NCBI GenBank assembly: GCA_050998805.1
Contig: JBPCPV010000050.1
Span: forward strand, 20,165-84,164
Origin: Chloroflexia bacterium
GTDB taxonomy: Bacteria; Chloroflexota; Chloroflexia; QHBQ01; JAICKM01
Reading direction: 5' to 3'
DNA length: 64,000 nt
The notes beneath the pieces are model-generated. The model ran no database searches, was not told the origin of the DNA, and saw only the letters and a program-made list of their open reading frames with translations. Made by a program: the position numbers and the translations under genes. Shown piece after piece: positions 736 to 18,608 of this stretch. How positions within the stretch are numbered: position 1 is the stretch's first letter; every line of letters begins with the position of its first letter.

Positions 736-999
736 GTGACCAACGGTATTATGCACAGAAGGGAGCTTGTGATGCACAGTGTGTTTGTTCCGCTCCCGCG
801 TAGCCTGCTGGATGAGCTCGGCCGCCGGGCCCGCAACGCGCATCGCCGACCGCAGGACCACGCGGCTTACATCCTGGAGCAGGCGCTTGCAATCGAGCCA
901 GAAGGGGCGGTTGGGGAGCAGCCGGACACGGCGACGCAAGCGGCCAGCCGGTTCTCCACTGCCCACGAGGGAGGGATCAGAGATGCCTCGCACGCATGA
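736..999 (+). CDS. ribbon-helix-helix (CopG/Arc-type) DNA-binding protein; probable true start ATG 772 (MHSVFVPLPRSLLDELGRR...)
   Basis: The PLPRSLLDELGRRA...AAYILEQAL pattern is typical of RHH N-termini. A GGGAG RBS sits before ATG 772. Confidence 0.5.
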   Translation: MTNGIMHRRELVMHSVFVPLPRSLLDELGRRARNAHRRPQDHAAYILEQALAIEPEGAVGEQPDTATQAASRFSTAHEGGIRDASHA

Positions 1000-1213
1000 C
1001 CCCGACGGACCGGCAGAGCTGCCCCTGCTACTGAGACCCGCCGCCGCCGCGAAGATGCTCTCGATCTCACGCTCAAAGATCTACTCGATGATCGCCGCTC
1101 ACGAGATTCCGCATGTGCGCATTGGGAAAAGTGGAATTCGCATCCCAGCCCAGGCGTTAGCCCGCTGGCTTGACGAACATACCCAGGAGGCCGATGAATG
1201 GAACGAGCCGTGA
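983..1213 (+). CDS. excisionase/MerR-type helix-turn-helix DNA-binding protein
   Basis: MLSISRSKIYSMIAAHEIPHVRIGKSGIRIPAQALARWL matches the excisionase-family HTH pattern. Internal ATG at 983 of ORF 779..1213. Confidence 0.6.
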   Translation: MPRTHDPDGPAELPLLLRPAAAAKMLSISRSKIYSMIAAHEIPHVRIGKSGIRIPAQALARWLDEHTQEADEWNEP

Positions 1214-2157: not shown

Positions 2158-3544
2158 CATGACAACTAACGGCACTGGGGACGGTGCGAACCTAGCCGAG
2201 TCATTAGAGCAGTTGATTGCCGCTGCGCCCGAATACCACCCGCCGGATGCCAATGGGCACCAGTATCTCGAAGCTGACGCTGCCGCGCCTGGAGAGGAAT
2301 CTCCAGCAGAAAGGATTCTGCGGTCCCGATCCTTTCGCTTATACTCTGTAGCTGAGCTTGCCGAGTTGACCGATCCCGAATGGCTGGTAGACGGACTCAT
2401 CCCGGCCGGGGGACTCACGGTGCTGTTCGGCCCGTCGGGCGTCGGCAAGAGCCTGCTCGTCTTGAGTCTGAGTGCCGCCGTCGCCACCGGGAGGCCGTTC
2501 GCTGGGTTAAAGGTCAAGAGAGGCCCGTGCCTATGGGTAGCCCTGGAAGGGTCACGAAGCATCCGGTCTAGGGCAGCTGCTTGGACACTTCACCATCACG
2601 AAAACATCGGCGCGCGGCTGTTCGTTTGCTCTGACCAGATTGACCTCAGCAACTTGTCCACAGTGGACACGCTCCTCGCTTCGTGGAACGCTCGAATTCA
2701 GGAGCTGCCCGTACTAATCGTCGTCGACTGTCTGGCTCGCGCGATGCCGGGCAAGAATGAGAACGACGTGAAAGACATCAACCTACTTATGGCTGGCCTC
2801 ACACGGATACAGACAGCCACCGGCGCAACGGTCATCCTAATCCATCACTCACTCAAATACGACGACTCAACCGAGCGCGGCAGTAGTGCCATCGTGAACA
2901 ACGCTGATGCGGTCTTTGGGCTGGCCGGGAAAGAGATCCAGACCCTTAGGTGCAAGAAGATGCGCGACGGAGAGGAACCCAGCCCTCTGCGCTTTGTTCG
3001 CGTGAAGGTTGCCGATTCTATAGTCTGTGAACCGACCGATGCCGCCGCAATTTCGGCAGACCTGGTGCTCACGAGCACAGAGAGGTCCGTGGTAGATGCC
3101 CTAACTGGCGTGCTCGTGGGATGGGCGACTGCAAAAGAAATTGCGGACGCGAGCCACATCGCGCACCGCACTGTAACGGACGCTCTCAGCAGCCTCATCA
3201 AGCGAGAACAGGTTGAGGCAAGGGGAAGCGACCGCAGCCCCCAGCGGTGCTACCGCATACGCCCCTCGCTTACTCAGCCGAACTCGGCACCTGACGAGTT
3301 CTGCCAAGCTGCTAAGTCTAGTGATGTGGAACTTAGCAACTTAGCGGTTCCTCTAGGCGGACGCCAAGTTGCTAAGCTGCCTACGGGTAGTCGAGTTGAA
3401 TCCATCTGTCCTGAATGTGAGACACCGCTGCCAGAGCAGGAGGCGCGGACGGGGATGTCCGCATACTCGGGCCTTGCGGCAGCCCGCCGCGTGTTCGGCG
3501 AGGATGCGGGAGAGCCACGTCCGGACGGCGGGAAGCGGCGCTGA
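2144..3544 (+). CDS. RecA-fold AAA ATPase (RepA/replicative helicase-like, AAA_25-type) with C-terminal winged-helix
   Basis: Walker A GPSGVGKS and Walker B LIVVD. Start overlaps the primase stop. C-terminal HTH-like TAKEIADASHIAHRTVTDALSSL. Confidence 0.65.
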   Translation: MEMANMTTNGTGDGANLAESLEQLIAAAPEYHPPDANGHQYLEADAAAPGEESPAERILRSRSFRLYSVAELAELTDPEWLVDGLIPAGGLTVLFGPSGVGKSLLVLSLSAAVATGRPFAGLKVKRGPCLWVALEGSRSIRSRAAAWTLHHHENIGARLFVCSDQIDLSNLSTVDTLLASWNARIQELPVLIVVDCLARAMPGKNENDVKDINLLMAGLTRIQTATGATVILIHHSLKYDDSTERGSSAIVNNADAVFGLAGKEIQTLRCKKMRDGEEPSPLRFVRVKVADSIVCEPTDAAAISADLVLTSTERSVVDALTGVLVGWATAKEIADASHIAHRTVTDALSSLIKREQVEARGSDRSPQRCYRIRPSLTQPNSAPDEFCQAAKSSDVELSNLAVPLGGRQVAKLPTGSRVESICPECETPLPEQEARTGMSAYSGLAAARRVFGEDAGEPRPDGGKRR

Positions 3545-3735
3545 CATGACGAAATGTCATGTCACGCTATGATCGTCGCTGGTATCCGTTTTGCTGGCGA
3601 TCGAGGAGGCACGCGCTATGGCGAGCGTAACGAACCTCTTGGAACGTACGCCTGCCTTGATATTGAACGACCTTACCGAGAGATTGCGGGATTCCGCGAA
3701 ACGCTGATGTTACGTTAGCAGAAGGAGAGGCTTCC

Positions 3736-4050
3736 ATGTCTAAACGACTCACGATCCGAGTACCGCAAGCCGCCCGCACCGAGCTTAATGAGTTGATGCG
3801 CGCGCGCTTACTTGATATCGCTGTGCATGTTGAGGCGCTGAGGATTAGCTCCGAGACGGTCGCCTTGCATCTAATGCATGCGCGAGCAGCTGGATGCCCG
3901 GCGGCGCTGGGTCTTGTTCCGACGCCTGAGGTAGAGACCGCGGCTTTCTTGATCGGGGTGCGCACCTCCGAGTTACTTCGGGCTGCGGCGATGGAGATAG
4001 CCAAACAGTGGGCAGAGGCTGTGGCAGCGCGCCTACCTCCAACGTCGTGA
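3736..4050 (+). CDS. hypothetical protein
   Basis: ORF with a plausible GGAGAGG RBS; no recognisable motif. Confidence 0.3.
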   Translation: MSKRLTIRVPQAARTELNELMRARLLDIAVHVEALRISSETVALHLMHARAAGCPAALGLVPTPEVETAAFLIGVRTSELLRAAAMEIAKQWAEAVAARLPPTS

Positions 4051-4238
4051 CCTCATCTCAGCGCGGTGGATAACTCAACCGTCCACAGCCGCGCGCAGTA
4101 TTCCGGTATGCGCGTGGCAGAACGCTCGACCGAACGGCACTCGGTGTGGTCATTCGGCGATCGTTCGGTCGTTCAGGCACAGAATTCGAGGAATAGAGTG
4201 CTCGTTGGGGCGGGACTCATTAGAACAACACACGCATT

Positions 4239-6152
4239 TCACCTATGCTCACGCTGCTTGCTGCGCCAACGGGCTTCCCGCTTGCGTTCCTCATCAGCTT
4301 CAATGAGCGCTGGCAACCAGGTAATCAGCGCCGCCAGAGCGGTACCCACCGGCAGCAGATAGCCAACGGTGAACGCAATGTGCCCTGCGGACTGCATGAA
4401 GCTGTCCAGGCTGTCGAACCACGAGGCTGCCGGCCGAGCCCAAAGCTCAGGCACCACCGGATCGATCCACCACCAGAATTCCAGCCAGACCGGCCCGGCA
4501 AGCAGGGCAACCATTACTAGCACGAAGCGGATAACAGACCAGCGCTCCTTCCAGTCAGGCTCCGAGTGGATCAGCCACACAATGAACAGAACGAACGGTA
4601 CCAGCAGTGGAGCGAGCGCTGCCCAGGCCGGCCCATGGTAGAGCAAATGCGCGGTGCGGTAGATGATGTCATGATCCGCATTCGGATCCGCGAGCACATT
4701 GGCGATGGCGGGATCCTGGCTCACCCAAAACCAGACCCACGCGGCGATGCCGAGCAGCGCGGCCAGGAACCCGCCGACCGTCAATGCCCAACGACGCCTG
4801 CGCGCAGCCGCGGCTATCTGGAGCCGCTGGGCTTCCGCTTCTTCCTTCCAGCGCTGCTCCTGGGCGGCGCGCTCCCGGGCCGCTATCGCCTGCTCTCTCC
4901 GGCGCTCCTCGGCAGCGGCTTGCTCGGCAGCCTTCTCCTCCTCACGCGCGGCCTCCTGCTCCGCGGTGCGCCGGCGTTCCGCCTGAGCCTCGCGCCGAGC
5001 CCTGGCCCGACGCGCGGCGTTCTCCTGCTTCCGTATACGCTCCGCCTCCGCGGCGGCCTGCCGCTCGGCCTCCAAGCGAAGGGCGCGCGCCTCGGCTTCG
5101 GCCTTCTCCTGCGCGAGGCGCTCGGCCCGCTGCCGGGCTTGCTCACGCGCGGCAGCCATGCCCGGTATCTCGGCCCGGTCGCGGGCCAGGATCTGGAGCA
5201 GGCTCCAGGCGGCATCGTACCAGGGCGTGCTCGCCCGCGGGTCTGGCAGGGTACGTACTTGCCGCCAGACGGGCGCATCGATTGCCCCGCCGACGACTAC
5301 ATCGCGGTAGAGCGCAATCCAGACCTCCCAGTTGGCGAGCGGCGGGTGGCGGGGAATATAGGTGGCCAGCCAGACAGCGAGCTGCTCGGCGCGCCTCTCG
5401 TCCTCGCCGTGCTCGGCATCGAGCACTGTGATCAGCAGCGGCGGCCAGGGGATGCCGAACCGTTCGGCGTGCGCGTCTCCGGCCGCGGCCCGTGCGTAGT
5501 AGCGGATTTTGTCGGCCCAACGCTCGGCGTGCATAGTGCCCCGGTCGTGCTCGTAGAACCAGGTTGGGAAGACGCCTGCGACCATCAGCACGCCGTCAGG
5601 CTCCAGGTAGGTCGCCCGTGTTTCGCCGGGTTCCGCGCGCAAGGAGAGGCGGACTGAGGGCTCACCATACCACTGCGGCGCAAGTTGTGCCAGCAGCCCG
5701 AAAAGCACGGCACGGGCGAACGCGCTGACTTCCAGGAGGTGGCGGGTCTGTGGGTGCAGCACCCGGTCCTCAGACAGGAGCGGAGGGACGCGCCAGACGC
5801 CCATCGCTGGTGAGCGCCGGGGCAGCGCGGCGACTCCGGCGCGCGTGAGGGCGTAGTAATGCCGCCTGCCGCCTGCGGAGCGCCGTGGGTCAACCAGGCG
5901 GGACAGCAGCCCAGCGGCGACCAGCTTACGCAATTGCTCGCTGCGGTTGGCGGGGCTGCCGAAGACGGCGTCATAGTCTGAATCGGTCAGCAACTGTAGT
6001 TCGTAAGTGAGCGCCAGTGCGCGCAGCGCCGCCGGCGAGGGAATGTAGTCGGAATCCCCGGCGGGAACGGAGCGACGGCGCATCGGTTTAGCCCTCCAAG
6101 ATAATCGTGCCGGCGGGTGGTTGGTGGGCTTTGGGTTTGCCCGTGGTTCCAC
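4239..6152 (-). CDS. replication-relaxation family winged-helix N-domain fused to a long E/R/A-rich single-alpha-helix segment and a C-terminal polytopic membrane domain
   Basis: N-terminal LTDSDYDAVFGSPANRSEQLRKLVAAGLLSRL...YYALTRAG. About 100 aa of AEAEARALRLEAERQAAAEAERIRKQENAARRAR... Then 5-6 hydrophobic helices at the C-terminus. Confidence 0.55.
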   Translation of the reverse strand: MEPRANPKPTNHPPARLSWRAKPMRRRSVPAGDSDYIPSPAALRALALTYELQLLTDSDYDAVFGSPANRSEQLRKLVAAGLLSRLVDPRRSAGGRRHYYALTRAGVAALPRRSPAMGVWRVPPLLSEDRVLHPQTRHLLEVSAFARAVLFGLLAQLAPQWYGEPSVRLSLRAEPGETRATYLEPDGVLMVAGVFPTWFYEHDRGTMHAERWADKIRYYARAAAGDAHAERFGIPWPPLLITVLDAEHGEDERRAEQLAVWLATYIPRHPPLANWEVWIALYRDVVVGGAIDAPVWRQVRTLPDPRASTPWYDAAWSLLQILARDRAEIPGMAAAREQARQRAERLAQEKAEAEARALRLEAERQAAAEAERIRKQENAARRARARREAQAERRRTAEQEAAREEEKAAEQAAAEERRREQAIAARERAAQEQRWKEEAEAQRLQIAAAARRRRWALTVGGFLAALLGIAAWVWFWVSQDPAIANVLADPNADHDIIYRTAHLLYHGPAWAALAPLLVPFVLFIVWLIHSEPDWKERWSVIRFVLVMVALLAGPVWLEFWWWIDPVVPELWARPAASWFDSLDSFMQSAGHIAFTVGYLLPVGTALAALITWLPALIEADEERKREARWRSKQREHR

Positions 6153-7447
6153 ATCCGCCAGGCCGCAAGATAGCCAATACTCTTTTACTTGGAATAGTCT
6201 GGTTGCTTTGTTCTCACGCGCTAATTATAGCCGACAAGCACACAAAAAGCAAGAGCGAACTGTAAGCGAGCCTTGATCGCGCACAAGGTATAAGTCAAAT
6301 TACTACAAAAGCATTCAGTCTGGACGCATGTGGACGCTAAATTCTACAGGCTCAAAGCTGAAAGTTGGACGGAAGTAAGTCGTTTTGACCATATTCAGAG
6401 TAGCTATTCCTCCACTTGGCACCACAAATAACCAGACCGTATGAACGTTTGCAGGTAAAGCGAGATCGTCGCCCGTGCCTAAAATCGGGGGTCGGCCGGA
6501 AAGAGATCTCCAGCGCAACCGTGCGACCGTCCCCACACGTCCAGACTGCCTCAGGCTCAAGGCAGGCATAGGGGCAAACCCCGGAGAACGGAGCAGGCTG
6601 ATCCTTCGCTGCATTCAGGACGCCGGCAGCGGCACCCCTGTGGTAGAATTCGGCTCCAAATGGCACAGGCCAGAGATTCTGGCAAACACAGCGGGCGGCG
6701 TAACGCGCAGGGCGAGCGCTAGGGCACGTTCTCGCCCACGCCACGAAACTTGAGTTGCACGACCGGGGGCACACAGGTGGGGCCGCCAGCGTGGCAGGCA
6801 GGTCGACGCCTGAGCGACAGAGATGCTTGGGCAAGTGCGGCATTTATTTGGCCATCAGCACGCCTATCAGGCGGGCAACCTGGATAGGGCGTGCCTGCTA
6901 ACCGCGATGCTCCGGGTACAAAGCGTTATCCGGCGGCTGCCGGAGCAGGACAGCGAACAACCTCTACCGCAAGCCGTAGCCTTGAGCCAGGAATCGCGGG
7001 AGTTATTGCCGAGCCTATGGACGTTTGTGCGGGTGGTGGGCATGGAGCAGAACGACAACCGGGCGGGATAGCTGTTACGCCCAGCGGTGCTCCGGCGCAA
7101 AGGGTGTTTCGGGGTGGCGAACGCAATGGGCAACGAATTTGTGCAACGGCTCTTAACCGTGATGGCGACCGGTCAGCAGGGCGGGGTCTCTGGTCGTTCC
7201 TCGGCGCGGAAGTGCGCTGCCATTGGACCGACAGTCTCGCTCCCCAGTTGTTCGACCTCCCACTGAACCGTTACTCCCGATCAGAAGCAGCCTCATCCTC
7301 AGCTTACGTTACTCCCTCTTCACTCGTCGCCAAATCAACCAGCCCACGAGCAGAACTACAAATACTATGGCAGCATGGCGCGTTCGGCTACGGGGTAGCA
7401 GTCTGTTGGGGAGAGCGCTTTTTCTCCAAAATCCGCCGTTGAAATCA

Positions 7448-7476
7448 TTGACAATTGGATCTTTCTGCCGTATAAT
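7448..7476 (+). promoter_or_regulatory. perfect consensus sigma-70 promoter TTGACA-17nt-TATAAT
   Basis: ttgaca at 7448-7453, a 17-nt spacer, tataat at 7471-7476. It sits ~100 nt upstream of the 7580 operon. Confidence 0.6.
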
Positions 7477-7579
7477 TACGTTAAGCTCCTATCAGGTTCG
7501 GTGCAGAGATTCGCACTGAAGCAGCGGAAGCCAGGAGCGTCAAGAGGCAAACCGAGTCTTTCATCGCAGGTCCAAACAG

Positions 7580-8026
7580 ATGGCGGAAGCAAAGGTTCCA
7601 CAATTAGCACAAACCCTGGCCGAGCCGGGCGATCATCCGGTGGATGCGCCGATCTATTGTGTCATCACTAGATTTGGCCTCCGTAGCTGGCGCTACTTGC
7701 TGCCTACCTACCTCGATTATCGTCGCGTTATAAGGCAGGCACGCCAGACGCAGACGCCTGGACTTCTTCGTTCGGCGTTTCTCGTTGAGAATCCCACGAC
7801 CTGTTATAGCCTTTCTGTCTGGGACAGGCCCGACGCTATCCCCGTTTTCGGAACCAGAGTTCCCAATCACGTCCGAGCCGCCCGCAGAGTCTTTGGGCGG
7901 GTGCCTCTGACGCAGGGCCGTTTGCCTGAAATCTGGGCTACCAAGTGGCGGTTAGCTTCTGTGAGCAATAATCTGAACTGGGACGATTTTGACCTGCGAG
8001 CGTTGCTGCTCGTCGTGAGTGAATGA
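7580..8026 (+). CDS. hypothetical protein, possibly DUF4188-like
   Basis: ORF directly downstream of the consensus promoter. The DUF4188 resemblance rests on recalled pattern only. Confidence 0.4.
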   Translation: MAEAKVPQLAQTLAEPGDHPVDAPIYCVITRFGLRSWRYLLPTYLDYRRVIRQARQTQTPGLLRSAFLVENPTTCYSLSVWDRPDAIPVFGTRVPNHVRAARRVFGRVPLTQGRLPEIWATKWRLASVSNNLNWDDFDLRALLLVVSE

Positions 8027-8047
8027 GCCTGAGCAAGGGAAACGGAA

Positions 8048-8659
8048 ATGCTTATGTTTGGCCAGATAGGAAACTCCGTAGTCAACGACTTCGCCTTGGC
8101 GACTCGGTTCAGCTTAGGCATAGTATTCCTATTCTCAGCTCTACCCAAGCTACGCCACCCGCTCGTATTCGCGCGAAATGTAGTCGCTTATGAAATCCTG
8201 CCTGCCAAGGTCGCTAATGTGTTTGCCTTCATGCTCATTCCTCTCGAAGCCTTCCTGGCAATTGCCTTCTTCACTGGTTGGTTGACAGATCTGGCCCTCC
8301 CCGTTGCTACGGCAGTTTTGATGAGCTTCCTCATAGCCGTGGGAATCAACTTGAGACGGGGCCGAAAGATTTCATGCGGCTGCTTCGAGAACGCGAGCGA
8401 GCGAATCTCAAACCGCACATTGGTTCGGCTGCTGCTGCTCCTATCCGGCGTTCTACTTTCGGTCGTGCTGAGGAACATCGGTGGTTCGGCACTACCCAGT
8501 TTCGGGGCGGTGACCGTTGATGCATCTGTAGCAGTCAATCTACTACTATCAGCACTTCTAGCTGTCTGTATTATTTTAGTCGGTATGTGGATTCTGAGTC
8601 TCCCAGAGTTGGTCTTTCTTGTCCGCCATTTACGCTGGCGTGAGCACAACTCACCTTGA
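8048..8659 (+). CDS. MauE/DoxX-like membrane protein (methylamine-utilisation MauE family)
   Basis: Four hydrophobic helices and the family-typical SCGCFE (DCGCFG-like) motif. Confidence 0.6.
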   Translation: MLMFGQIGNSVVNDFALATRFSLGIVFLFSALPKLRHPLVFARNVVAYEILPAKVANVFAFMLIPLEAFLAIAFFTGWLTDLALPVATAVLMSFLIAVGINLRRGRKISCGCFENASERISNRTLVRLLLLLSGVLLSVVLRNIGGSALPSFGAVTVDASVAVNLLLSALLAVCIILVGMWILSLPELVFLVRHLRWREHNSP

Positions 8660-8711
8660 ACGTATAGCGGATGAAGACAGGATGGAGCGCGCATAAAACG
8701 AGGTACATGAT

Positions 8712-9305
8712 ATGGTGAACGATACATCGGTTGTTTTTTATCTATCGTATGCTGCTCTCTGGGTGCTTGTAATCTTGCAGAGCCTGATATTGTTGGGTCT
8801 GGTCCGAATGGTCTACCAACTTCAACGAACCGGGGTTGTTGGGAGTTCATCTGAAGGTATCGGTGATCTCAGCTTACGACCTGGTCAGGAAGCACCAGAG
8901 TTCAGCGCGGTTGACCTTTCCGGTGCGCCGATCAGTAGTGCAGACTTTCATGGCCTGAAAGCCATTCTATTCGTCTCGCCTAATTGTCCATCCTGCACAC
9001 TAACCCTATATGAAATGCAGGCTCTTAAGTACAAAGCATCCGGAAACGTGTTAGTAGTATGCCGCGCCAACCGTGACGAGTGTATCCGCCTTGCCGAGAG
9101 GCATGAACTTGATATACCTACCGTGGCTGATGAAGATGAGCGAATTAGCCGACTCTTTGGCGTTTCCTCCGTCCCTGTGGCCGTTCTCATAAATGATGAT
9201 GGACGAATCCGATCCTATGGTTATCCGCAACGGGATGAACTGGAAAAAGCTCTTGGAACTACACCAGAAGGCGATGCTCAACCTCAGGTTCAAGGAGTAG
9301 GTTAG
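8712..9305 (+). CDS. membrane-anchored TlpA/MauD-like thiol-disulfide oxidoreductase (redoxin fold)
   Basis: N-terminal TM helix and a SPNCPSC CxxC active site with thioredoxin-fold spacing. Confidence 0.65.
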   Translation: MVNDTSVVFYLSYAALWVLVILQSLILLGLVRMVYQLQRTGVVGSSSEGIGDLSLRPGQEAPEFSAVDLSGAPISSADFHGLKAILFVSPNCPSCTLTLYEMQALKYKASGNVLVVCRANRDECIRLAERHELDIPTVADEDERISRLFGVSSVPVAVLINDDGRIRSYGYPQRDELEKALGTTPEGDAQPQVQGVG

Positions 9306-9306
9306 T

Positions 9307-9513
9307 ATGGTTACGGAAAGCATGGTAGAGCGCCCAAAAGCTAGGCGGCAACCTTCTAGTCCCGCTGATATTCCAAGAAGCCTGAGACGTATGACCTTGG
9401 CTGTTATAGCCGTTTTCCTCCTGAGTGGGATGGCAGCTGTGACATTGAATCCAAGATTAGGGCTTTTCCCGGTGGCGTTCATTCTCGGTTGGACACAGTT
9501 GGTTGGTCACTGA
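9307..9513 (+). CDS. small membrane protein; in frame with the next ORF across a single TGA
   Basis: AGGAG RBS. One TM helix. Same reading frame as 9535..10140. Confidence 0.3.
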   Translation: MVTESMVERPKARRQPSSPADIPRSLRRMTLAVIAVFLLSGMAAVTLNPRLGLFPVAFILGWTQLVGH

Positions 9514-9534
9514 GGGGCCTCGCTCGTCGGAGCG

Positions 9535-10140
9535 TTGACGCCCCTCGGGAAGGTGGCTGGAGGCAAGAAGAAGTGGTTGATCAATGTGGCGGTTTATACC
9601 ATTGCCGGTGGGATGGCCAGCACTCTTGTTGGAGCAGGATTGGGCTTACTAGGCCACTGGATCGTGCCCGCGCAAAGCACCAAGATGGGGACCGTGGTTG
9701 CCATCGCTGTTTCTACACTTGCTGCCACCCGCGAATTTGGCTGGATATCCCTGCCGCTACCTCAATGGGCTAGGCAAACCCAGCGCATATGGGGGATGCG
9801 CTTTCATCGGACACTAGCGGCAGCGTTATGGGGGTTTGACTTGGGACTGACCTTTACGACCCGGCTCACATTCTCAGGAGTCTGGTTCCTTGCTGCTATG
9901 GCGATTTTCTCTAAGGATCCAGCATACGGAGCGGCCTTATTCACTCTGTATTGGCTAGGGCGTGTTCTTTCGGTTTGGCTTGCCCCGCTGCTGATGTGGG
10001 ACGCAAATTCCACTCCGCAGTTATTAGACGCGATAAATGAACAGTATCAGTTGTTTCGACGGATTCATGCCTGGGCTCTGGTTTCGGCAGTTGCCATACT
10101 CTGCTTATGGCTTATTCATGGAACGCCGATGCTACGCTGA
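9535..10140 (+). CDS. polytopic membrane protein, unknown function (TTG start, or continuation of 9307..9513)
   Basis: About 6 hydrophobic helices; sits inside the operon. Confidence 0.4.
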   Translation: MTPLGKVAGGKKKWLINVAVYTIAGGMASTLVGAGLGLLGHWIVPAQSTKMGTVVAIAVSTLAATREFGWISLPLPQWARQTQRIWGMRFHRTLAAALWGFDLGLTFTTRLTFSGVWFLAAMAIFSKDPAYGAALFTLYWLGRVLSVWLAPLLMWDANSTPQLLDAINEQYQLFRRIHAWALVSAVAILCLWLIHGTPMLR

Positions 10141-10214
10141 GTGTCGTGCCACGGGCACAAGGGGGATACAGCAGTACGAGATGTCTATGGTAGTTAGATA
10201 GTAGGAGGTGTGGA

Positions 10215-10559
10215 ATGTCTACGGAGAAACTGGCTGAGAGGCTCGCGCAAGAGATCGACCGCAGAAGCTTCGTGAAGAGGCTGGGAGCAGGTGCTGTAGG
10301 TACACTGCTGGCGCTGATGGGTGTAACGCCAGCTGCGGCTGAACGCACAGTCCCTGCCTTCGTCTCGTGTTGCGATACATGCAACCCTCCCCAGGGTTCA
10401 TGCAGTGGCTGTTATTGCCAATGGTGCTGGCAGTGTTCTGACTGTGCAGTTGGTGGTACTTATCGGTGCTGCGAGTGCTACTCAAGAACTGAAAGTTGCA
10501 TCGGTGATTGTCCAGCTATCTGTTCATCGGTCAAGTTCATAAGCCCCGCTTGCCGCTGA
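10215..10559 (+). CDS. twin-arginine-signal precursor of a hyper-cysteine-rich small protein (16 Cys in a ~72-aa mature region)
   Basis: Strong AGGAGG RBS. RRSFVKR Tat motif, a hydrophobic h-region and an AAA cleavage site. Then CCDTC..CSGCYCQWCWQCSDC..CCEC..C..C..C..C. Confidence 0.6.
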   Translation: MSTEKLAERLAQEIDRRSFVKRLGAGAVGTLLALMGVTPAAAERTVPAFVSCCDTCNPPQGSCSGCYCQWCWQCSDCAVGGTYRCCECYSRTESCIGDCPAICSSVKFISPACR

Positions 10560-10617
10560 CCTCATAGGCAGTCGATGCTGGCTTCCGGGCTGGGGCCGGT
10601 GTCGAGTAGGAACGGAG

Positions 10618-11169
10618 GTGGATAAGCTGATGGGTATACAGATGCGGCTGCTCGCGTTATTGTCGGTCTTCACGATCCTGGTGGGCTGCGATAGCCCGCC
10701 GGTGCCCTCGCCCGTACCTTCGCCAGTGCCGCCCGCCCCGACGAACGTGCTGGCCGCCTGTCCAGTCACGATCCCCAACGGCAGCGTACCTCCGAACGTG
10801 CCGGGTGCCGATCCTATCAAGGTGCCATGCCCATCATGCCATGGTAATGGAACCTTATGGACCACCTTCCCACCTGACGGTCAGGTACAGGCAACACCAA
10901 ACAGCGCGGGTTCGTTAGAGACTAAGTTTCCATGGTGGAGCGGGCCAGGAATCAGCGATGCCCTTACCATACAGGGACGCAGGATCGACGCGCCAGCCCC
11001 TCCGTTGGCCGCGCGCATCCCCTCCGGGTATGAAGGTGGCGGCTTCCAAGCGACTGGGATCATATTTCCAACAGTGGGGTGCTGGGAAGTCACCGGGAAA
11101 GCGGGCACAGCCAGCTTGACTTTCGTGATCCGGGTGGTCGAGGGCGCGCCGGCCGGCGGTTTGCCTTAG
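10618..11169 (+). CDS. lipoprotein, Pro-rich linker, unknown function
   Basis: Signal peptide with an LVGC lipobox. PVPSPVPSPVPP linker. Confidence 0.5.
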   Translation: MDKLMGIQMRLLALLSVFTILVGCDSPPVPSPVPSPVPPAPTNVLAACPVTIPNGSVPPNVPGADPIKVPCPSCHGNGTLWTTFPPDGQVQATPNSAGSLETKFPWWSGPGISDALTIQGRRIDAPAPPLAARIPSGYEGGGFQATGIIFPTVGCWEVTGKAGTASLTFVIRVVEGAPAGGLP

Positions 11170-11209
11170 CGGTCTGGCTGTGCGAGGTGGATAAGCTCCA
11201 AGGAGTAGC

Positions 11210-14071
11210 ATGTCGCGCCTCACCAGGCGGGAACTCATCTGCGCGGTTCTGGTCTGCGGCCTCGCCGCGACGCTCTTCCTCGGTCGCGCGATCGGCACCG
11301 GCCGCGTGCTCTCCCCGTCCGATTTTCTCTACGTCTACCCTCCCTGGCAGAGCGTGCGGCCTGCCGGCTGGCCCGGCCCCGAGAATAGCTTGTTGAGCGA
11401 CAGCACGCTACAGTTTGAGCCCTGGCTGGCCTTTGCCGCCGCGCGTCTGCACTCCGGATCCCTACCGCTCTGGAACCCCGACAACATGCTCGGTGCCCCA
11501 CTGCTCGGCAACATGCAGTCGGCGATCTTTTCGCCCCTCAACTGGCCCTACTTCATCTGGCCCGCGCCCGAGACGCTCGTGGTACGGGTCTGGCTGCATC
11601 TCGTACTCGGCGCGATAGGGGCGTACGTGCTCGCCCGACAAGTCGCGCGCGTCGGCCCGCTGCCTGCGGCAGTCGCCTCGCTCACCTTCGCCTACGGTGC
11701 TTTCATGGTCGTCTGGGCGCTCCACCCCCATACGGCTGCCGTCATCTGGCTGCCCTGGATCTGGTGGGCGACGGCCCGCCTGATGATCGCCCCCGGCCCC
11801 CGCGCGGTCGCCGTCCTCGGCGGATTCGTTGCCCTCCTCGTGCTCGCGGGTCATCCGGAAACCGCTTTCCATACGATGCTCGCCACCGGATTTTTCGCCC
11901 TCTTCCTGGTCGGGCTACGCCGGCCCTGGCGTCCGCCCGCCGCCGTGCGCGACCTCGCGCTCTGGGGGATCGCGGGTCTCGTCGGAGGCGCTGTCGCTTC
12001 CATGCAGATTCTGCCGTTCTTGGAGTACACGGGGCTGAGCTGGTTCGCCCTCGTGCGTTCCAGCTTGCATATTACCGAGCCGCTCGTCCCGGTCCAGTAC
12101 GCCTGGACCCTCTTCAGCCCCGATTGGTTCGGCGATCCGGTTCGTGGCACATATTGGGCGACGCAGATCAACTACAACGAGTCGAACAATTATGCAGGTC
12201 TCGTCCCCCTGCTGCTGGCCCCGCTGGCCTTCGCCGGACGCGACCGGGCACAGCGCGCCCTTGCCCTGTTCTTGCTCGGCCTCGGCGCGCTGGCGCTCCT
12301 AATCGTCTACCAGGCACCCATCGTACAGAGCATTATCCAGATGGTGCCCGTGCTGAACGTCAGCCAGAACCAGCGCCTGACATTCGTGGCCGAACTTGTG
12401 CTTGGCTTGCTGGGGGCGCTGGGGCTGGAGACCTTGCTACGGGCAGGCGCGAGCGGCAGCCGACGCCTGCGCGTCGCGCTTGCCTGTAGCTGTGCCGGGC
12501 TGCTGGTCATCGGCGTCGGCGTGCCCTGGCTGGCCGCGACGACCTTCTTCGGCGTGCCCGTCACGGCTCCGGCCGTACAGGCGCTCTGGCAGCAAAACTT
12601 GTGGCGGACGGGAGGGCTGATCCTGGCCGGCACAGCGATCATCGCCGGGGTCTGGCACTGGGGCGGGCAGAGGGCCGCCGCCGGCTTCGCGCTGCTGATT
12701 CTCCTCCTGGCGGGCGATCTTTGGCAGGCCCACGGCGACTACCTGCCGACCACGGCCCGTCAGGATTACTTTCCGCCGACCCCGACGACGACCTTCTTGC
12801 AGGCCCAGCCCGGTCTCTTCCGCACGGTGGGTGTCGGCTGGGCGCTCCTGCCGCATACGAACCTACTCTACGGGCTGGCCTCGCTGGCTGGCTACGACAG
12901 CCTCGAGCCGCGCCTCTTTCGCGACCTGGCCGCCGAGCTAGACCCGACGCGCGGGATGTGGGCGGGCGTCCGGCCTTTCCACCAGGTGCAGTCGCCGCTT
13001 CTAAACCTGCTCAACGTGCGCTACGTACTCGAATCTGGCACCGACGACCCGAACAACATCGTAGACGTGAACCCTGGGGTTGACCCCATAACCACCACGG
13101 CCGAGATCCGCGGCCCGGTACAGGCCGGGCAGACCTTCACCGCCACGCTCGACTACCTCACCGCGATCACCGTTCACGGCACGACTTTCGGCCACACGCC
13201 GGCCGGCACGCTCGTCTTCCACCTCCAGACCGCGCCGGGTACCGCCGACCTGGTGACCCAGGCGCTGCCGGCCGCCACGCTGGTGGACAATGGGGATTGG
13301 ACTGTGAGGTTCCCGCCGCTCTCCGGCAGCCGGGGCCGCGCCTTCTACTTCTATTTCGCCGCGCCGGATGCTCCGGCCGGGCACGCGGTTGGGCTTTGGT
13401 ACAACCCCCATGATTCCTACGCGGCGGGCGCGCGGATGGACGGCGGACGGCCGGCGAGAGGGGACCTGGTCTTCCAGACGACGGCCTATTCCGACCCGGC
13501 GGCTCCCTGGTTCGCCCGCGTGCTCGACGGCGGGCCGGCGGGCACAGCCGTCTGGGAGAACCGCCGGGTGCTGCCGCGCGCATGGTTGGCGCACCGCGTC
13601 GAGGTCGGGGCGAACCCGAAAGCGGGACGCATACGCCTGGCCGACCCCGGGTTCGATCTCCGCGGCACGGCGATGCTGGAGGCCGCTCTCCCGGTCGATC
13701 TGCCCGCGCCCGAGCCACCCGGCACCCCCGACCGCGTGGAGATGCTCAGCTACGCCCCCGAAGCCGTAGACATCGGCACGCAGAGCGAGACGCCCGGGCT
13801 ACTTGTGCTCAGCGACGAGTGGTTTCCCGGCTGGGAGGCCACCGTTGACGGCCAACCCGCGCCGATCAGGCGGGCGGACTATGGGCTGCGGAGCGTCTAC
13901 GTGCCCGCGGGCGCGCACCAGATCGCCTTTCGCTACCGGCCCAGCTCCTTCACCCTCGGAGCTGGAATCAGCGCGCTGGCCCTGCTCATCCTGGCCGGAC
14001 TATGGTGGAGTCCACCCCTGATTCATCGCTTCCGGAGATCGGCTGGTATAGTACTCGGTGCTGAGGGCTAG
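11210..14071 (+). CDS. YfhO-family polytopic membrane protein (glycosyl-transfer to cell-envelope polymers)
   Basis: N-terminal region with the WNPDNMLGAPL motif. About 65% identical over the N-terminal domain to the paralog at 39587..42472. Confidence 0.7.
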   Translation: MSRLTRRELICAVLVCGLAATLFLGRAIGTGRVLSPSDFLYVYPPWQSVRPAGWPGPENSLLSDSTLQFEPWLAFAAARLHSGSLPLWNPDNMLGAPLLGNMQSAIFSPLNWPYFIWPAPETLVVRVWLHLVLGAIGAYVLARQVARVGPLPAAVASLTFAYGAFMVVWALHPHTAAVIWLPWIWWATARLMIAPGPRAVAVLGGFVALLVLAGHPETAFHTMLATGFFALFLVGLRRPWRPPAAVRDLALWGIAGLVGGAVASMQILPFLEYTGLSWFALVRSSLHITEPLVPVQYAWTLFSPDWFGDPVRGTYWATQINYNESNNYAGLVPLLLAPLAFAGRDRAQRALALFLLGLGALALLIVYQAPIVQSIIQMVPVLNVSQNQRLTFVAELVLGLLGALGLETLLRAGASGSRRLRVALACSCAGLLVIGVGVPWLAATTFFGVPVTAPAVQALWQQNLWRTGGLILAGTAIIAGVWHWGGQRAAAGFALLILLLAGDLWQAHGDYLPTTARQDYFPPTPTTTFLQAQPGLFRTVGVGWALLPHTNLLYGLASLAGYDSLEPRLFRDLAAELDPTRGMWAGVRPFHQVQSPLLNLLNVRYVLESGTDDPNNIVDVNPGVDPITTTAEIRGPVQAGQTFTATLDYLTAITVHGTTFGHTPAGTLVFHLQTAPGTADLVTQALPAATLVDNGDWTVRFPPLSGSRGRAFYFYFAAPDAPAGHAVGLWYNPHDSYAAGARMDGGRPARGDLVFQTTAYSDPAAPWFARVLDGGPAGTAVWENRRVLPRAWLAHRVEVGANPKAGRIRLADPGFDLRGTAMLEAALPVDLPAPEPPGTPDRVEMLSYAPEAVDIGTQSETPGLLVLSDEWFPGWEATVDGQPAPIRRADYGLRSVYVPAGAHQIAFRYRPSSFTLGAGISALALLILAGLWWSPPLIHRFRRSAGIVLGAEG

Positions 14072-14073
14072 CG

Positions 14074-14250
14074 ATGAGCAAATACTACTGGCAAGGGGAG
14101 CGCGTTCGGCTACGGGCGGTCGAGCCGGAGGATTGGGAGAGGCTATCCGCCTTGTGCTACGCTATTTCTTCTAGGAACTCCGCTACCAGAAAGCGACGGT
14201 CCATGTCTATGACTTCAACGAGGCTTCGATCCGGTATGTACGGCAAGCAG
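14074..14250 (+). pseudogene. possible N-terminal remnant of a GNAT acetyltransferase
   Basis: YYWQGERVRLRAVEPEDWERL resembles a RimJ/L-type N-terminus, but the ORF degenerates after ~35 aa. Confidence 0.25.
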
Positions 14251-14532
14251 TGGGTCGAACAGGTGGGCGAGCCGGATGCGGTAAGCCTCAGAGACCAGCC
14301 GAAAGTGGCCGCCGTCGGCGTCGAAGGCCCAGGGCAGCCCGGCGGTCGCTATGGTCAAGCCTGGCTCACGGTCGCGGTAGATCAGCTCACTGCCGAGCCG
14401 CCCACCGGCGTCCTTGTAAGTCAGGTCGACGACGGCCGAGCCGTACCATTTCGCGTCAACAACCGTGACTAAGCCATCGGGCAGTATCCCGGCGATCTGC
14501 GTGCCCGGGACGAGGTCTTCGAGTTGAGCCAT
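14215..14532 (-). CDS. hypothetical protein, possibly a fragment
   Basis: ORF track only. Confidence 0.25.
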   Translation of the reverse strand: MAQLEDLVPGTQIAGILPDGLVTVVDAKWYGSAVVDLTYKDAGGRLGSELIYRDREPGLTIATAGLPWAFDADGGHFRLVSEAYRIRLAHLFDPLLAVHTGSKPR

Positions 14533-14890
14533 ATCGTAGGTCTCCGGAGTCTTGCGCTTTCTTCAGGCTCTAGCACTCTTTGCGGAGCCGCACGAAGTAT
14601 ACCACGGCAGAGGCCGCCTGTCCAGCAGGCCATGCCCGGCTAACGCCACCGCTTCCATTCAAATCTGGATATGGAACTTGTTTCCGAACCCCTTGATTTG
14701 CACGTATGAATTGGCTATAATGTGAAGCAGGCGGCTAACCATCGGCTTCAACACCTACCCGAATACAGGAGCCTGAGCTGTAGCAAGCGGATGACAGTGG
14801 TGCTTGATGGCGGGCGGTCGTCGCGGCAATTCGGCGGAAAGTCCACGAATTGGCTGGACGGGTGCAACAGTTGGAGGGGAGGGCGCAACA

Positions 14891-16090
14891 ATGACCAAGA
14901 CTGAGCACGATGAAGGATCCTCGTCGGGCACGGGCGGAAATGTAACAAGGGGCAGGCGTGGAAACAATGAAGGGGCGATCTACAAGCGCAAAAGCGACGG
15001 TAAGTGGTTTTCCTCAATCAGTCTTGGCTACGGACCGGACGGCAAGCGCACGCGCAAAGCATTCTCTGGTGAGACGCGCAAAGAGGTTTCCGAAAAGCTG
15101 AAAGTAGCCCTACGTGATCAACAGCAGGGACTGCCCGTTGCAATGGAGCGGCAGACGATCAACCAATTCCTCACCCGGTGGCTGGAAGATTCGGCAAAGC
15201 AGAGGGTGCGCGCTTCCACATATGAAAGCTACGAGATCCAGGTCCGGGTACATATTGTGCCTGCCCTCGGTCGGGTGCAACTGGCCGCCCTAACCCCCCA
15301 ACAAGTAGCGGCATGGCTGAAACAAAAGCGGGAGTCCGGGCTGTCGAGCCGGTCGGTGCAATACATGCATGCCGTCTTACGCATGGCACTGGGTCAGGCT
15401 CTAAAATGGGGCCTCGTGGCGCGCAACGTTGCTACGCTCGTGGAGCCGCCCCGCGTCAAGCGGGCGGAGATCAGGCCCTGGACCGTTGCTCAGGCGAAGA
15501 CGTTCTTGGAAGCCGTCAAGGGGGATAGGCTTGAGGCCCTGTACTCGGTGGCCCTTGCGCTCGGTTTGCGCCGAGGCGAAGCTCTGGCACTACGCTGGGA
15601 AGACGTGGATTTGGATAAGCGCACTTTGACTGTCCGGGCAAGTTTGCAGCGGGTCGAGCACAAATTACAGCGCGGAGAACCCAAGACCGAAAGAAGTATG
15701 CGAACGCTCAAGTTGCCGTCCGTAACTGTGGCCGCGCTGAAAGCCCATCGTGTCCGCCAGCTTGAGTCGCGCTTGCTGGCGGGCGACAGGTGGCAAGACA
15801 CCGGGTACGTCTTTACATCAACTATCGGCACGCCTCTCGAGCCGCGAAATGTCCTTCGTACCTTCCAAAAGGCCGTGGAAGATGCCGGCTTTCCGCCGAC
15901 GAAGTTCCACAATTTGCGGCATTCCTGTATCTCCCTGCTTGTCGCGCAAGGTGTGCCCCTCCAGACCGTTTCTTGGCTGGCAGGGCACAGCCGGCTAGCG
16001 ACTACCGCCGACATCTACACCCACATCATGCAAGCGCAGTTCGACGACGCGGCGGACCGCATGGATGACCTGTTGAACGGGGCGGGCTAG
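14891..16090 (+). CDS. tyrosine-type site-specific recombinase/integrase (phage integrase family)
   Basis: Catalytic R (LRRGEALALRWEDVD), HNLRHSC (HxxR) and the C-terminal ADIYTHI tyrosine. GGAGGGGAGG RBS before ATG 14891. Confidence 0.8.
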   Translation: MTKTEHDEGSSSGTGGNVTRGRRGNNEGAIYKRKSDGKWFSSISLGYGPDGKRTRKAFSGETRKEVSEKLKVALRDQQQGLPVAMERQTINQFLTRWLEDSAKQRVRASTYESYEIQVRVHIVPALGRVQLAALTPQQVAAWLKQKRESGLSSRSVQYMHAVLRMALGQALKWGLVARNVATLVEPPRVKRAEIRPWTVAQAKTFLEAVKGDRLEALYSVALALGLRRGEALALRWEDVDLDKRTLTVRASLQRVEHKLQRGEPKTERSMRTLKLPSVTVAALKAHRVRQLESRLLAGDRWQDTGYVFTSTIGTPLEPRNVLRTFQKAVEDAGFPPTKFHNLRHSCISLLVAQGVPLQTVSWLAGHSRLATTADIYTHIMQAQFDDAADRMDDLLNGAG

Positions 16091-16211
16091 TCGATTCGTC
16101 TGGCTGGCTGGGGCCGCGCGCCGAGTGACCCCTGTGTATACGCGGGTGTATCTCGCCTTGCCTCGGAGCCGGGATCTGCCGTTTTGAAGGCGCGCCGACC
16201 AGTAGGGGGCC

Positions 16212-17513
16212 TCAGTAGCCAGTTCCCCCCGCTCCTGCTCGCACCTGATCAATGTAGATCCAGGCACCGTTCTCGACCTTGTAGATCGAGATCCAGCGGT
16301 TGGTCGTGTCGCCGTTCGCGTCGAAGCCAGTTGTGCCGAGCGCACCCTTGAAGTCCTTTGTCGCGGCGATGGCGGCGCGGATCGCTTCGCGGTTCCTCTT
16401 GCCGGCGGTCTTCATCGCGGCGATGATGATGTTGGTGGCATCGTAGGCATACGCCGAGTACGCCTGGGGCACTCCGCCCCACCTATCGTTCCCGAACGCC
16501 GCCATATACGCGGCGGTGAACGCCTTCGCCTCCGGCAGCACGTTCGAGTTGACCTTTGCCACCGCGCTGTAGTCGCCTTCTGAGTCGGGACTTGCGGCCC
16601 GCGCGTAGTTGGACGAAAATATGCCGTCGCCGCCCATCAGCGGGATGGTCAGGCCAGCGGGCTTCATCGCCTTGCGGGCCGCCGAGATGCCGTGCGACTC
16701 GGTGCCGCCGTAGTAGAGGATGTCGGGGCCGGTCGATGCGACCTTGTTCATGATCGGGCTGAAGTCGGCCGTGCCCATCGGCACCGAGTCGTGGCCGAGG
16801 ACGGTGCCTCCGGTGGCCTTAAACTCCTGCTCGAACTCGCTCGCGACGATCTTGCCGTATGCTCCGGTGTCGTCGAGGATGTAGGCTTTGCGCTTGCCGA
16901 GCTTGTCGTAGGCGTAGTCAGCGCCGGCGGAGCCTTCGATGTTATCGGTGGGGCAGACGCGGAAGTAGGTCACTTCACCCGTTGGGCGGTAGGCTGAAAG
17001 CACGGAGTTGTACCGAGCGAGAGTCAGGTCGGCGGCTGTGGTGCCTGGGGAGATGCCGGCTAAGCCGGCGGTGTTCAGCTTCGGCATCATCAGGCGCGCA
17101 ACGTTGCTGTTGAGGGGGCCGACCATCGCCATCACGTCAGGGTCGGCGATGAAGGTGTCGGCGTTCTTGGAGCCTTGTACCGGCTCGTGAACCTGCCCGC
17201 CGGGTGGCACATCGTCGAGGAAGTACATCTGGATCGTGTAGTGCTTGCCGTCGAGGGTGACTCCGCCCGCAGCGTTCGCCTGGTCAATCGCGAGTTGGAT
17301 GCCCTGGCGGGCGGGGATACTGTACTCCGTCTCAGCGCCGCCGCCCGGCAGGTCTACCGCAATCTTGACGATGCCACTCCGGAAGCGACCACTCAACATC
17401 ATTGGGATGGCGACCAGCAGAAGGAGTGTGATCGCTACCAGAGCGGCGACCCAAGCGACCCACGTCGCGCGGGCGGGCGCTGTCTGGAGCTGCGGACGGG
17501 CGTCATCGTTCAT
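16212..17513 (-). CDS. ABC transporter substrate-binding protein, branched-chain amino acid (LivJ/K) type, TM/signal-anchored
   Basis: Signal anchor, then a periplasmic-binding-protein type I pattern. Confidence 0.7.
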   Translation of the reverse strand: MNDDARPQLQTAPARATWVAWVAALVAITLLLLVAIPMMLSGRFRSGIVKIAVDLPGGGAETEYSIPARQGIQLAIDQANAAGGVTLDGKHYTIQMYFLDDVPPGGQVHEPVQGSKNADTFIADPDVMAMVGPLNSNVARLMMPKLNTAGLAGISPGTTAADLTLARYNSVLSAYRPTGEVTYFRVCPTDNIEGSAGADYAYDKLGKRKAYILDDTGAYGKIVASEFEQEFKATGGTVLGHDSVPMGTADFSPIMNKVASTGPDILYYGGTESHGISAARKAMKPAGLTIPLMGGDGIFSSNYARAASPDSEGDYSAVAKVNSNVLPEAKAFTAAYMAAFGNDRWGGVPQAYSAYAYDATNIIIAAMKTAGKRNREAIRAAIAATKDFKGALGTTGFDANGDTTNRWISIYKVENGAWIYIDQVRAGAGGTGY

Positions 17514-18507: not shown

Positions 18508-18608
18508 AATCAGCCTACGTGAGCGATGGCCTCGTGACCGGGTTCCCGATCCAGGTCGCGGTTTGGTCCCCATGCCTTCCAGCCCTCGAACAAGTACAGA
18601 GCTGCCAA

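Follow-up and report, generated by a model that had tools for sequence, protein, structure and literature searches.

The 64,000-nucleotide stretch of DNA analyzed here (hereafter the window) comes from contig JBPCPV010000050.1 of a Chloroflexia bacterium (assembly GCA_050998805.1) and contains an operon in which relatives of the methylamine utilization (mau) accessory proteins are encoded beside a small, exceptionally cysteine-rich precursor with a twin-arginine translocation (Tat) leader. Six genes lie behind a consensus sigma-70 promoter, with gaps of 1-74 nt between them (Table 1). An earlier note on this DNA, made from the sequence alone, had described this promoter and the open reading frames (ORFs), and all of them were recovered. 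It had also recognized a MauE-family protein with a CGC motif, a membrane-anchored thioredoxin fold with a CPSC site, and the Tat precursor with its AAA cleavage site and its cysteine-rich mature part containing two tryptophans. These assignments were upheld: the MauE-family protein scored well above the PF07291 cut-off of 27 bits, the thioredoxin-fold protein exceeded the cut-offs of both AhpC-TSA (58 bits) and Redoxin (51 bits), and the precursor passed the TIGR01409 TAT_signal model (17.7 bits; cut-off 16.7). The note missed four things: the MauF homologue, its predicted selenocysteine (Sec), the MauA-like character of the Tat leader, and the antibiotic biosynthesis monooxygenase (ABM) fold of the first gene product.

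Table 1. Features of the operon and its immediate surroundings (positions in the window; Cys and Trp numbering is that of the 114-residue precursor, 10215-10559)
Feature	Position	Strand	Basis or detail
Sigma-70 consensus promoter, TTGACA-17-TATAAT	7448..7476	+	12/12 matches
ABM-fold soluble protein, 148 aa, first gene of the module	7580..8026	+	AlphaFold2 (AF2) model, Foldseek
MauE-family membrane protein, CGC active-site motif	8048..8659	+	PF07291, 90.5 bits
MauD-like thioredoxin-fold protein, N-terminal membrane anchor, CPSC site	8712..9305	+	AhpC-TSA, Redoxin
MauF-like polytopic membrane protein, 277 aa, predicted Sec at residue 69 (TGA 9511-9513)	9307..10140	+	reading frame, homologues, hhalign
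Selenocysteine insertion sequence (SECIS)-like stem-loop beginning at UGA	9510..9548	+	nucleotide conservation, pairing
Apical hairpin of SECIS-like element, CGCUC-GUCG-GAGCG	9521-9534	+	
Tat leader of precursor, residues 1-42, MSTEKL...DRRSFVK...AAA (AAA at 40-42)	10215..10340	+	TIGR01409, hhalign
Mature precursor domain, 72 residues, 16 Cys, W70/W72 (W-C-W), E87 (CCECY)	10341..10559	+	family alignment, AF2
Lipoprotein, accessory gene	10618..11169	+	lipobox LVGC
YfhO-family membrane protein, adjoining but outside the conserved module	11210..14071	+	PF09586, 55.5 bits
Direct repeat, imperfect, ~40 nt	left copy 7360..7394, right copy 14082-14116		perfect 17-mer GCGCGTTCGGCTACGGG

To establish how widely this arrangement occurs, genomes (one per species) were searched with the membrane gene beside the precursor as query, which returned 39 loci. 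In most of them, tblastn with the window proteins revealed the order ABM-fold protein, MauE, thioredoxin-fold protein, membrane protein, precursor. All-against-all clustering of the ORFs grouped the membrane protein from 31 loci, MauE from 29, the thioredoxin-fold protein and the first gene from 29, the precursor from 23, and the lipoprotein from 11; the same clustering showed no further conserved gene, and hence no MauB, MauG, radical-SAM enzyme, protease, exporter, or YfhO. A five-gene core is therefore conserved in ∼30 loci of several phyla. The hosts include Anaerolineae and other Chloroflexota, Thermomicrobiales, Ktedonobacteraceae, Thermoanaerobaculia and other Acidobacteriota, Gaiellales, Solirubrobacteraceae, Pseudonocardiaceae, and Eisenbacteria. 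Two nearly identical loci, L016 and L017, were binned to a Thermomicrobiales and a Gemmataceae metagenome-assembled genome (MAG), and one of these bins is probably contaminated.

The suggestion made earlier, that a MauE/MauD-type oxidative-folding pair has been recruited to a substrate other than MauA, is borne out by a gene set kept across phyla and by the large precursor family described below, and the triad of MauE, thioredoxin, and Cys-rich precursor, for which conservation in related genomes was to be checked, recurs in ∼30 loci. Likewise, the reported lack of MauB extends to MauG and any other tailoring gene among conserved neighbors. The lipoprotein and YfhO had been counted as members of the operon. 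Both identities stand, but YfhO lies outside the conserved module, and the lipoprotein is present in about one-third of loci (11-13, as judged by tblastn and clustering).

A word-indexed protein search with the precursor retrieved the identical protein only, on six metagenome contigs that are evidently of the same organism. An exhaustive HMMER search of 1.84 billion representatives of 50%-identity clusters yielded 219 precursor clusters at E ≤ 1e-3, 57 of them at E ≤ 1e-10. Family members are nearly all 105-130 aa long and align from end to end, with the consensus M..E.L.......RR.FL.K.GA.A.G....L.G....A.A.....CC.LC..P...C.GC.C.WCW.C....G....CCECY.....C.G.C..V.CS. The twin arginines are present in 117 of 134 members, Arg-16 is invariant, and a Tat motif, a hydrophobic core, and an AxA site are all in place. 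Invariant or nearly invariant positions are C52, C53, C56, C63, C74, C85, C95, C99, and S104, together with W70, W72, and E87, the last three being conserved in 98% of the family. The AF2 model of the mature domain, built from the family alignment, has a predicted local distance difference test (pLDDT) score above 90 and contains a three-stranded sheet, for which Foldseek returned no solved fold at E below 4. One locus (L014, 5369-6117) carries two tandem precursor paralogues.

Inspection of the cysteine residues that follow the leader revealed 12, 14, 16, or 18 of them in 122 of the 134 members and an odd number in only 9. Individual cysteine columns also covary. Columns 52 and 74 (phi 0.97) are both occupied in 118 sequences, both empty in 16, and discordant in 1; the corresponding values are 100, 31, and 4 for columns 71 and 86 (phi 0.92), 63, 56, and 16 for columns 66 and 88 (phi 0.79), and 77, 34, and 24 for columns 75 and 113 (phi 0.67). 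Given that cysteine counts are even and that columns are gained and lost in pairs, disulfides are indicated rather than metal sites. The alignment thus points to 6-9 disulfide pairs in the family, of which the window protein would hold eight in 72 residues. Among the substrates that had been suggested for the operon, this favors the disulfide-knotted protein and disfavors the metal-cluster protein.

The Tat leader proved to be distinctive. It carries a conserved E-K-L n-region ahead of the twin arginines, which is unusual among Tat signals, and hhalign comparison with a 43-sequence MauA alignment, assembled from metagenome loci, gave a probability of 95.8% (E 6.5e-9, 32 columns); a single MauA sequence gave 82%. 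The alignment covers the leader only, matching precursor residues 2-33 to MauA residues 10-41. By contrast, the mature domain aligned with that of MauA with an hhalign probability of 0.3%, none of 58 precursor members matched the Pfam models Me-amine-dh_L or QhpC, and the precursor profile retrieved no methylamine dehydrogenase chain from the PDB sequences. These profile comparisons indicate that the leader is homologous to the MauA leader and that the mature domain is not, in keeping with the earlier view of the peptide as unlike MauA.

The membrane gene upstream of the precursor had been noted as "one or two membrane ORFs." The ORFs at 9307-9513 and 9535-10140 share a frame and are split solely by the TGA at 9511-9513 (...ILGWTQLVGH-TGA-GASLVGALTPLGKVAGG...), so that the first of these options, a single gene, is retained and the second is not. 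Database homologues of the encoded protein (51 sequences) cover the C-terminal 53-76% of the fused protein, and all except P0052 begin just past the TGA position, many of them 1-2 residues after it, or further downstream. P0052 reads GWTQLGGRCGTAH, with Cys at the TGA position. When genomic loci were translated through the stop, 27 of 29 contained the in-frame TGA, with protein conservation on both sides of it and the motif LGWTQLVG-x-TGA-G-x-SLVGAL-x-PLGKVAG. Besides P0052, Cys occupies this position in L030 (TGC), L033 (TGT), the full-length protein of L049, and Paracoccus MauF. The Cys-form gene of L049 (756-kb contig; 11675-15048) stands in a different setting, the order there being precursor, two-domain lipoprotein, MauF-like gene, two-domain lipoprotein.

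Conservation around the TGA is also evident at the RNA level. The nucleotides 3′ of the TGA have a mean identity of 85% across phyla, against a protein identity of only 35-57%. Where the amino acid is shared, codon identity is 0.77-0.83 over the 16 codons from -1 to +14; in the remaining 8-codon blocks it ranges from 0.25 to 0.47, or ∼0.33 taken together. This region can fold into an apical hairpin (CGCUC-NNNN-GAGCG), with 95.5% pairing across loci, and an outer stem that takes in the GA of the UGA; in L022, the sequence differs and a hairpin is still formed at the same place. In the Cys forms, the 3′ nucleotides are not conserved in this way, not even at codons for identical amino acids. A SECIS-like stem-loop directly 3′ of the UGA is therefore indicated by nucleotide conservation and pairing, and it is predicted to bind SelB. 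An Rfam search over positions 1-20000 gave nothing at gathering scores and nothing meaningful around the TGA; Rfam has no model for this element.

The Sec machinery itself was found beside a distant copy of the module. A tblastn search of 72,556 plasmids with the MauF-like protein gave weak matches to two Paracoccus mauF genes and to Streptomyces anthocyanicus plasmid NZ_CP109276.1, and no second plasmid with the module was found. The Streptomyces locus (L047, 3528-10576) is a homologous module, with MauE, a CxxC thioredoxin-fold gene, and a Tat precursor with 8 Cys (CCNL...CCETSY) that aligns with the precursor family at an hhalign probability of 96.3%. Its MauF-like gene reads ILQVFSP-TGA-GQSMAGVAGP, aligns with the MauF-like family at 95.8%, and is annotated by RefSeq through the Prokaryotic Genome Annotation Pipeline (PGAP) as a truncated hypothetical protein. 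Directly beside this module, within 1 kb, lie tRNA-Sec (selC; 6549-6643, minus strand), selD, selA, and selB, so that the genes for Sec decoding adjoin this single candidate selenoprotein gene on a plasmid. A 145-aa gene at the same locus matches PF13826 (af470-like) weakly; its hhalign comparison with the ABM-fold family was not significant, though both match PF13826 weakly.

These observations bear on the possibility that TGA 9511 is a true stop, in which case 9307-9513 and 9535-10140 would be separate genes or the remains of one. The two ORFs are annotated as such by gene callers and PGAP, a TTG start is available at 9535, and the window holds no Sec machinery. However, in every locus the conserved protein sequence runs in the same frame before and after the TGA, Cys stands at this position in homologues and in MauF, RNA-level conservation is restricted to the 3′ side of the TGA and to TGA forms, and the four sel genes adjoin the module in Streptomyces. 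We regard termination at this codon as extremely improbable. The split membrane gene is instead predicted, from its sequence relatives, to be a single Sec-containing relative of MauF.

Homology to MauF is supported by hhalign comparison of the family with MauF of Paracoccus versutus, the source of the reference Mau proteins used throughout, which gave a probability of 98.2% (E 4e-14, 170 columns). In this alignment, Sec falls in the same column as the Cys of WSPCGYSS in P. versutus MauF. Since the membrane ORF pair encodes a MauF homologue, the whole MauF/E/D trio is present in the operon. The fused protein matched no family in Pfam or NCBIfam 20.0, and comparison of the family profile with PDB sequences returned an acetyltransferase match only, which was rejected as spurious. 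Judged by hydropathy only, the predicted Sec lies in the second hydrophobic stretch, just ahead of a Lys-rich loop, and it is the one invariant Cys/Sec position of the family. To our knowledge, no function has been assigned to MauF in the time since sequencing of the mau clusters. That its invariant Cys is replaced by Sec in most relatives argues that MauF is a redox protein and singles out the Cys of WSPCGYS in Paracoccus MauF as the residue of interest.

The MauF-like family is absent from the 119 prokaryotic selenoprotein families and subfamilies listed in 2026 (PMC13188914) and is, so far, unlisted. Membrane selenoproteins on that list include the SO_0444 Cu/Zn efflux family, the rhodanese/DsbD-fusion TsoB, and MerT-like proteins, in which Sec likewise replaces a functional Cys; their NCBIfam models gave no match to the window protein. 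Literature searches combining MauE with selenocysteine, using the name MauF, and combining MauE/MauD with cysteine-rich or twin-arginine retrieved no description of this system.

A single conserved Cys/Sec in a polytopic membrane protein could also be read in terms of metal handling. Pfam DsbD_TM or DsbD_2 matched 1 of 23 MauF-like members and not the fused window protein. The superfamily of these two models includes metal transporters. If the MauF-like selenoprotein were a transporter of the DsbD_2/NicO type, it could load the Cys-rich protein with metal, in the manner of a metallothionein or an Fe-S protein. The very high Cys content, the use of Tat export, typical of cofactor-loaded proteins, the few MauF-like members that reach the DsbD_TM or DsbD_2 models, and the published Sec-containing membrane metal transporters such as SO_0444 (PMC13188914) are all consistent with such a role. 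On the other hand, even cysteine numbers with pairwise gain and loss are the signature of disulfides and not of ligand sets, an extracytoplasmic thiol oxidase and thioredoxin pair is co-conserved with the precursor, and no conserved His/Cys ligand motifs of known clusters are present. Metal loading is accordingly considered very unlikely.

The proteins that would carry out disulfide formation are the MauE and MauD relatives. The CxC motif of MauE is kept in all 27 extracted homologues; beyond the Pfam model, likeness to P. versutus MauE is local, around this motif. The MauD-like protein aligns end to end with the TIGR02661 MauD model at 48.6 bits (cut-off 188.6) and with P. versutus MauD by BLASTP over 181 aa including the anchor (28% identity, E 8e-14). 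Hydropathy shows one N-terminal hydrophobic anchor, and the CxxC is kept in homologues. On these alignments, the window MauE, MauD-like, and MauF-like proteins are homologues, and not equivalogs, of the mau accessory proteins. A 2026 preprint (bioRxiv 10.64898/2026.03.05.709764) reports that MauE homologues replace DsbB in Escherichia coli with CxC as the active site. Loci of the Acidobacteriota type (L020, L028, L029, L031, and L033; ∼8650-9330 in L020) have a second thioredoxin-fold gene after the MauF-like gene, followed by the ABM-fold and MauE genes; the additional gene could mean separate oxidizing and reducing thioredoxin partners.

The first gene is the best-conserved member of the module, with 328 homologues, the best 120 of which are 59-74% identical and all unnamed. 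Its product contains no hydrophobic segments and yielded an AF2 model with a pLDDT of 90. Foldseek comparison with the PDB gave 39 matches at E ≤ 1e-3, including TT1380, SnoaB, LsrG, ActVA-Orf6, and IsdI (E 3e-5 to 1e-3); among the top-ranked matches, target TM-scores of 0.6-0.8 occur. PF13826 (Monooxy_af470-like) matches weakly in 3 of 18 members, and the family matched neither PDB sequences nor MauJ. Invariant residues include C27, H97, W81, W119, and W134. The model indicates the ferredoxin-like beta-alpha-beta fold of ∼100 residues seen in the ABM, or dimeric alpha-beta barrel, superfamily; the protein could be an oxygenase that acts on the precursor before export or a chaperone that binds its leader.

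An oxygenase-like fold beside a precursor with a W-C-W motif raises a different interpretation, namely that the small protein carries a Trp-derived quinone like tryptophan tryptophylquinone (TTQ) or cysteine tryptophylquinone (CTQ) and is a miniature relative of the small subunits of amine dehydrogenases. MauA contains 12 Cys in six disulfides plus TTQ. Here, the ABM-fold protein would hydroxylate one of the two invariant Trp residues in the cytoplasm before Tat export, and the lipoprotein may be a partner subunit. This would account for the conservation of both tryptophans and the glutamate, for a leader and three accessory proteins that are those of a TTQ enzyme, for the likeness of the first gene product to the cofactor-free oxygenases SnoaB and ActVA-Orf6, and for the use of Tat, which fits modification ahead of export; an even number of cysteines is a property of MauA as well. 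Yet the conserved neighborhood offers no gene for MauG, MauB, a radical-SAM enzyme, or a flavin monooxygenase, the mature domains lack homology to MauA or to the Pfam models for MauA and QhpC, and the ABM fold includes proteins such as LsrG that are not oxygenases. We therefore think it unlikely, though worth bearing in mind, that the protein bears such a quinone, and assign the same modest chance to the fuller scheme of a new protein-derived cofactor in which a Trp-based quinone or cross-link in W-C-W plus Glu is begun in the cytoplasm by the ABM-fold oxygenase and, after Tat export, finished by MauE, MauD, and Sec-MauF. If correct, this would constitute a minimal TTQ-like redox protein that needs neither MauB nor MauG and is widespread among the Chloroflexota, Acidobacteriota, and Actinomycetota of soil.

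The interpretation preferred here is that the operon encodes a self-contained maturation-and-export module of the MauF/E/D type for a very small, hyper-disulfide-bonded extracytoplasmic protein, a prediction that we consider probable. In the minimal scheme, the cytoplasmic ABM-fold protein would act on or hold the precursor ahead of its export through Tat, and cleavage would take place after AAA. The MauD-like thioredoxin, through its CPSC site, would introduce or shuffle the disulfides of the precursor and would be re-oxidized by MauE through its CGC motif, with electrons passing to quinone. The single Sec in the second membrane helix of the MauF-like protein would serve as the redox-active residue of a membrane relay by which either the thioredoxin partner or the cargo is maintained in the right redox state for proofreading of the many disulfides.

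Several observations weigh against this scheme. The family has one conserved redox residue where DsbD and CcdA have two, so that a DsbD-like relay is not established and a metal-handling role is possible. The use of Tat for a cargo that is oxidized outside the cell is left unexplained, and the ABM-fold protein is without an assigned role. The MauD match falls far below the equivalog cut-off. With regard to Sec, the window hairpin alone folds no better than shuffled sequences (z -1.35), and the strong conservation of the element leaves little covariation in the hairpin. No sel genes or tRNA-Sec were found in the 64-kb window or in the MAG locus flanks, and decoding of this apparently mobile copy by its host is a prediction.

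Comparison with known systems places the module closest to the methylamine dehydrogenase clusters of Paracoccus and Methylobacterium, which share with it homologues of MauF, MauE, and MauD and a small Cys-rich Tat substrate with a MauA-like leader. The differences are as follows. The window system lacks MauB, MauG, amicyanin, and MauJ among conserved neighbors and has gained the ABM-fold gene; its mature domain is of 72 residues, compared with ∼130 in MauA, and is not homologous; its MauF homologue has Sec in place of Cys; and its hosts are Chloroflexota, Acidobacteriota, and Actinomycetota, whereas mau belongs to methylotrophic Proteobacteria. The module works like MauF/E/D-dependent MauA maturation, yet it is not a methylamine dehydrogenase. 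It also resembles the DsbB/DsbA and DsbD/DsbC systems and CcdA in combining a membrane oxidase, a periplasmic thioredoxin-fold carrier, and a polytopic membrane redox protein, but DsbD and CcdA have two conserved Cys in contrast to the single Sec/Cys-69 of the MauF-like family, and the window system is dedicated to one substrate. The preprint cited above presents MauE as a DsbB-like generalist with a CxC motif, found outside mau clusters and with a thioredoxin-fold partner. Its text contains neither the word MauF nor the word selenocysteine, the parts of it relevant here mention neither this gene module nor a dedicated Cys-rich substrate, and in the window MauE is tied to one cargo.

Small Cys-rich precursors beside MauE have been described before in Streptomyces. 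In the parts of the decRiPPter report relevant here (PMC7794033), Streptomyces clusters with mauE, one of them also with mauD, and a precursor of at least 8 Cys are put forward as candidate families of ribosomally synthesized peptides with post-translational modifications (RiPPs). Like the window module, they pair MauE/MauD with a small Cys-rich precursor outside methylamine metabolism, and the Streptomyces plasmid locus is probably of this kind. They differ, as compared by description, in being computational candidates, and those parts of the report mention no Tat leader, MauF homologue, Sec, ABM partner, or spread beyond Streptomyces. The precedents are thus MauE/MauD serving Cys-rich precursors (Streptomyces, computational, PMC7794033) and MauE as a general disulfide-forming enzyme (the 2026 preprint). 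According to the literature searches, what is new is the five-gene module and its spread, the attachment of a MauA-type leader to an unrelated cargo, the MauF homologue, and its Sec form with a SECIS-like element and a sel neighborhood.

The decRiPPter candidates suggest that the product might be a secreted antimicrobial or toxin-like peptide of the bacteriocin or defensin sort, loosely a RiPP, with the operon as its mobile biosynthetic cluster. The window copy indeed lies among genes of mobile elements, as does L050, in which a transposase and an integrase adjoin the module. Many copies, however, are chromosomal and sit among housekeeping genes; an ordinary Tat signal with an AxA site serves as the leader; the conserved neighbors include no gene for immunity, dedicated export, leader proteolysis, or tailoring, such as a RiPP cluster would be expected to have; and structural matches are not significant. 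An antimicrobial role is thus doubtful, at roughly the small chance given to the Trp-derived cofactor. This reading addresses what the product does, and the maturation mechanism put forward above could hold alongside it.

If the maturation module operates as predicted, its implications extend beyond the window. The MauF-like proteins would form a new family of integral-membrane selenoproteins, common in soil phyla and systematically split by gene callers into two "hypothetical proteins." The MauA-type leader together with MauF/E/D would be a portable unit serving unrelated cargos, which raises the question of a role for the leader beyond Tat targeting. The cargo would represent a scaffold with 6-9 disulfides in ∼70 residues and its own folding machinery, which may help in the production of disulfide-rich peptides.

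The accessory lipoprotein matched no family model, save for a sub-threshold match to Anti-TRAP. It contains a CPSCHGNG motif and a further conserved Cys near the C terminus, and its domains are duplicated in L049. A role as partner or receptor of the small protein is conceivable.

The placement of the operon in a mobile region, which had been proposed earlier, is plausible. Upstream are a primase zinc-ribbon protein (1198-2157), an AAA_25 helicase-like protein (2144-3544), and a Replic_Relax protein of 637 aa (4239-6152, minus strand) with a long Ala/Glu/Arg-rich region and a hydrophobic C terminus; a tyrosine integrase (14804-16090) lies downstream. Genes typical of an integrative element thus surround the operon (1-16090), the left end being outside the window. 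The G+C content is 51-57% in the operon, ∼65% in the surroundings, and 68-70% in YfhO. The jump occurs within one repeat-bracketed segment, and the operon and YfhO probably have different histories. The copies of the direct repeat bracket the promoter, operon, and YfhO (7360-14116, 6.7 kb). An ORF at 14074-14472 (MSKYYWQGERVRLRAVEPEDWE...) has the right copy as its 5′ end, and the left copy resembles a remnant of that ORF, which suggests insertion of the segment as a cassette.

The consensus promoter is not conserved upstream of homologous operons. Within the 64-kb window, TTGACA-17-TATAAT sites with at most one mismatch number three, compared with 0.02 expected from shuffled sequences. A second perfect copy at 25508-25536 (minus strand) is directly upstream of tRNA-Leu (25409-25495, minus strand), from which it appears that the organism uses such promoters. 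The one-mismatch copy at 21197-21225 (minus strand) is located ∼430 nt upstream of tRNA-His (20697-20771, minus strand).

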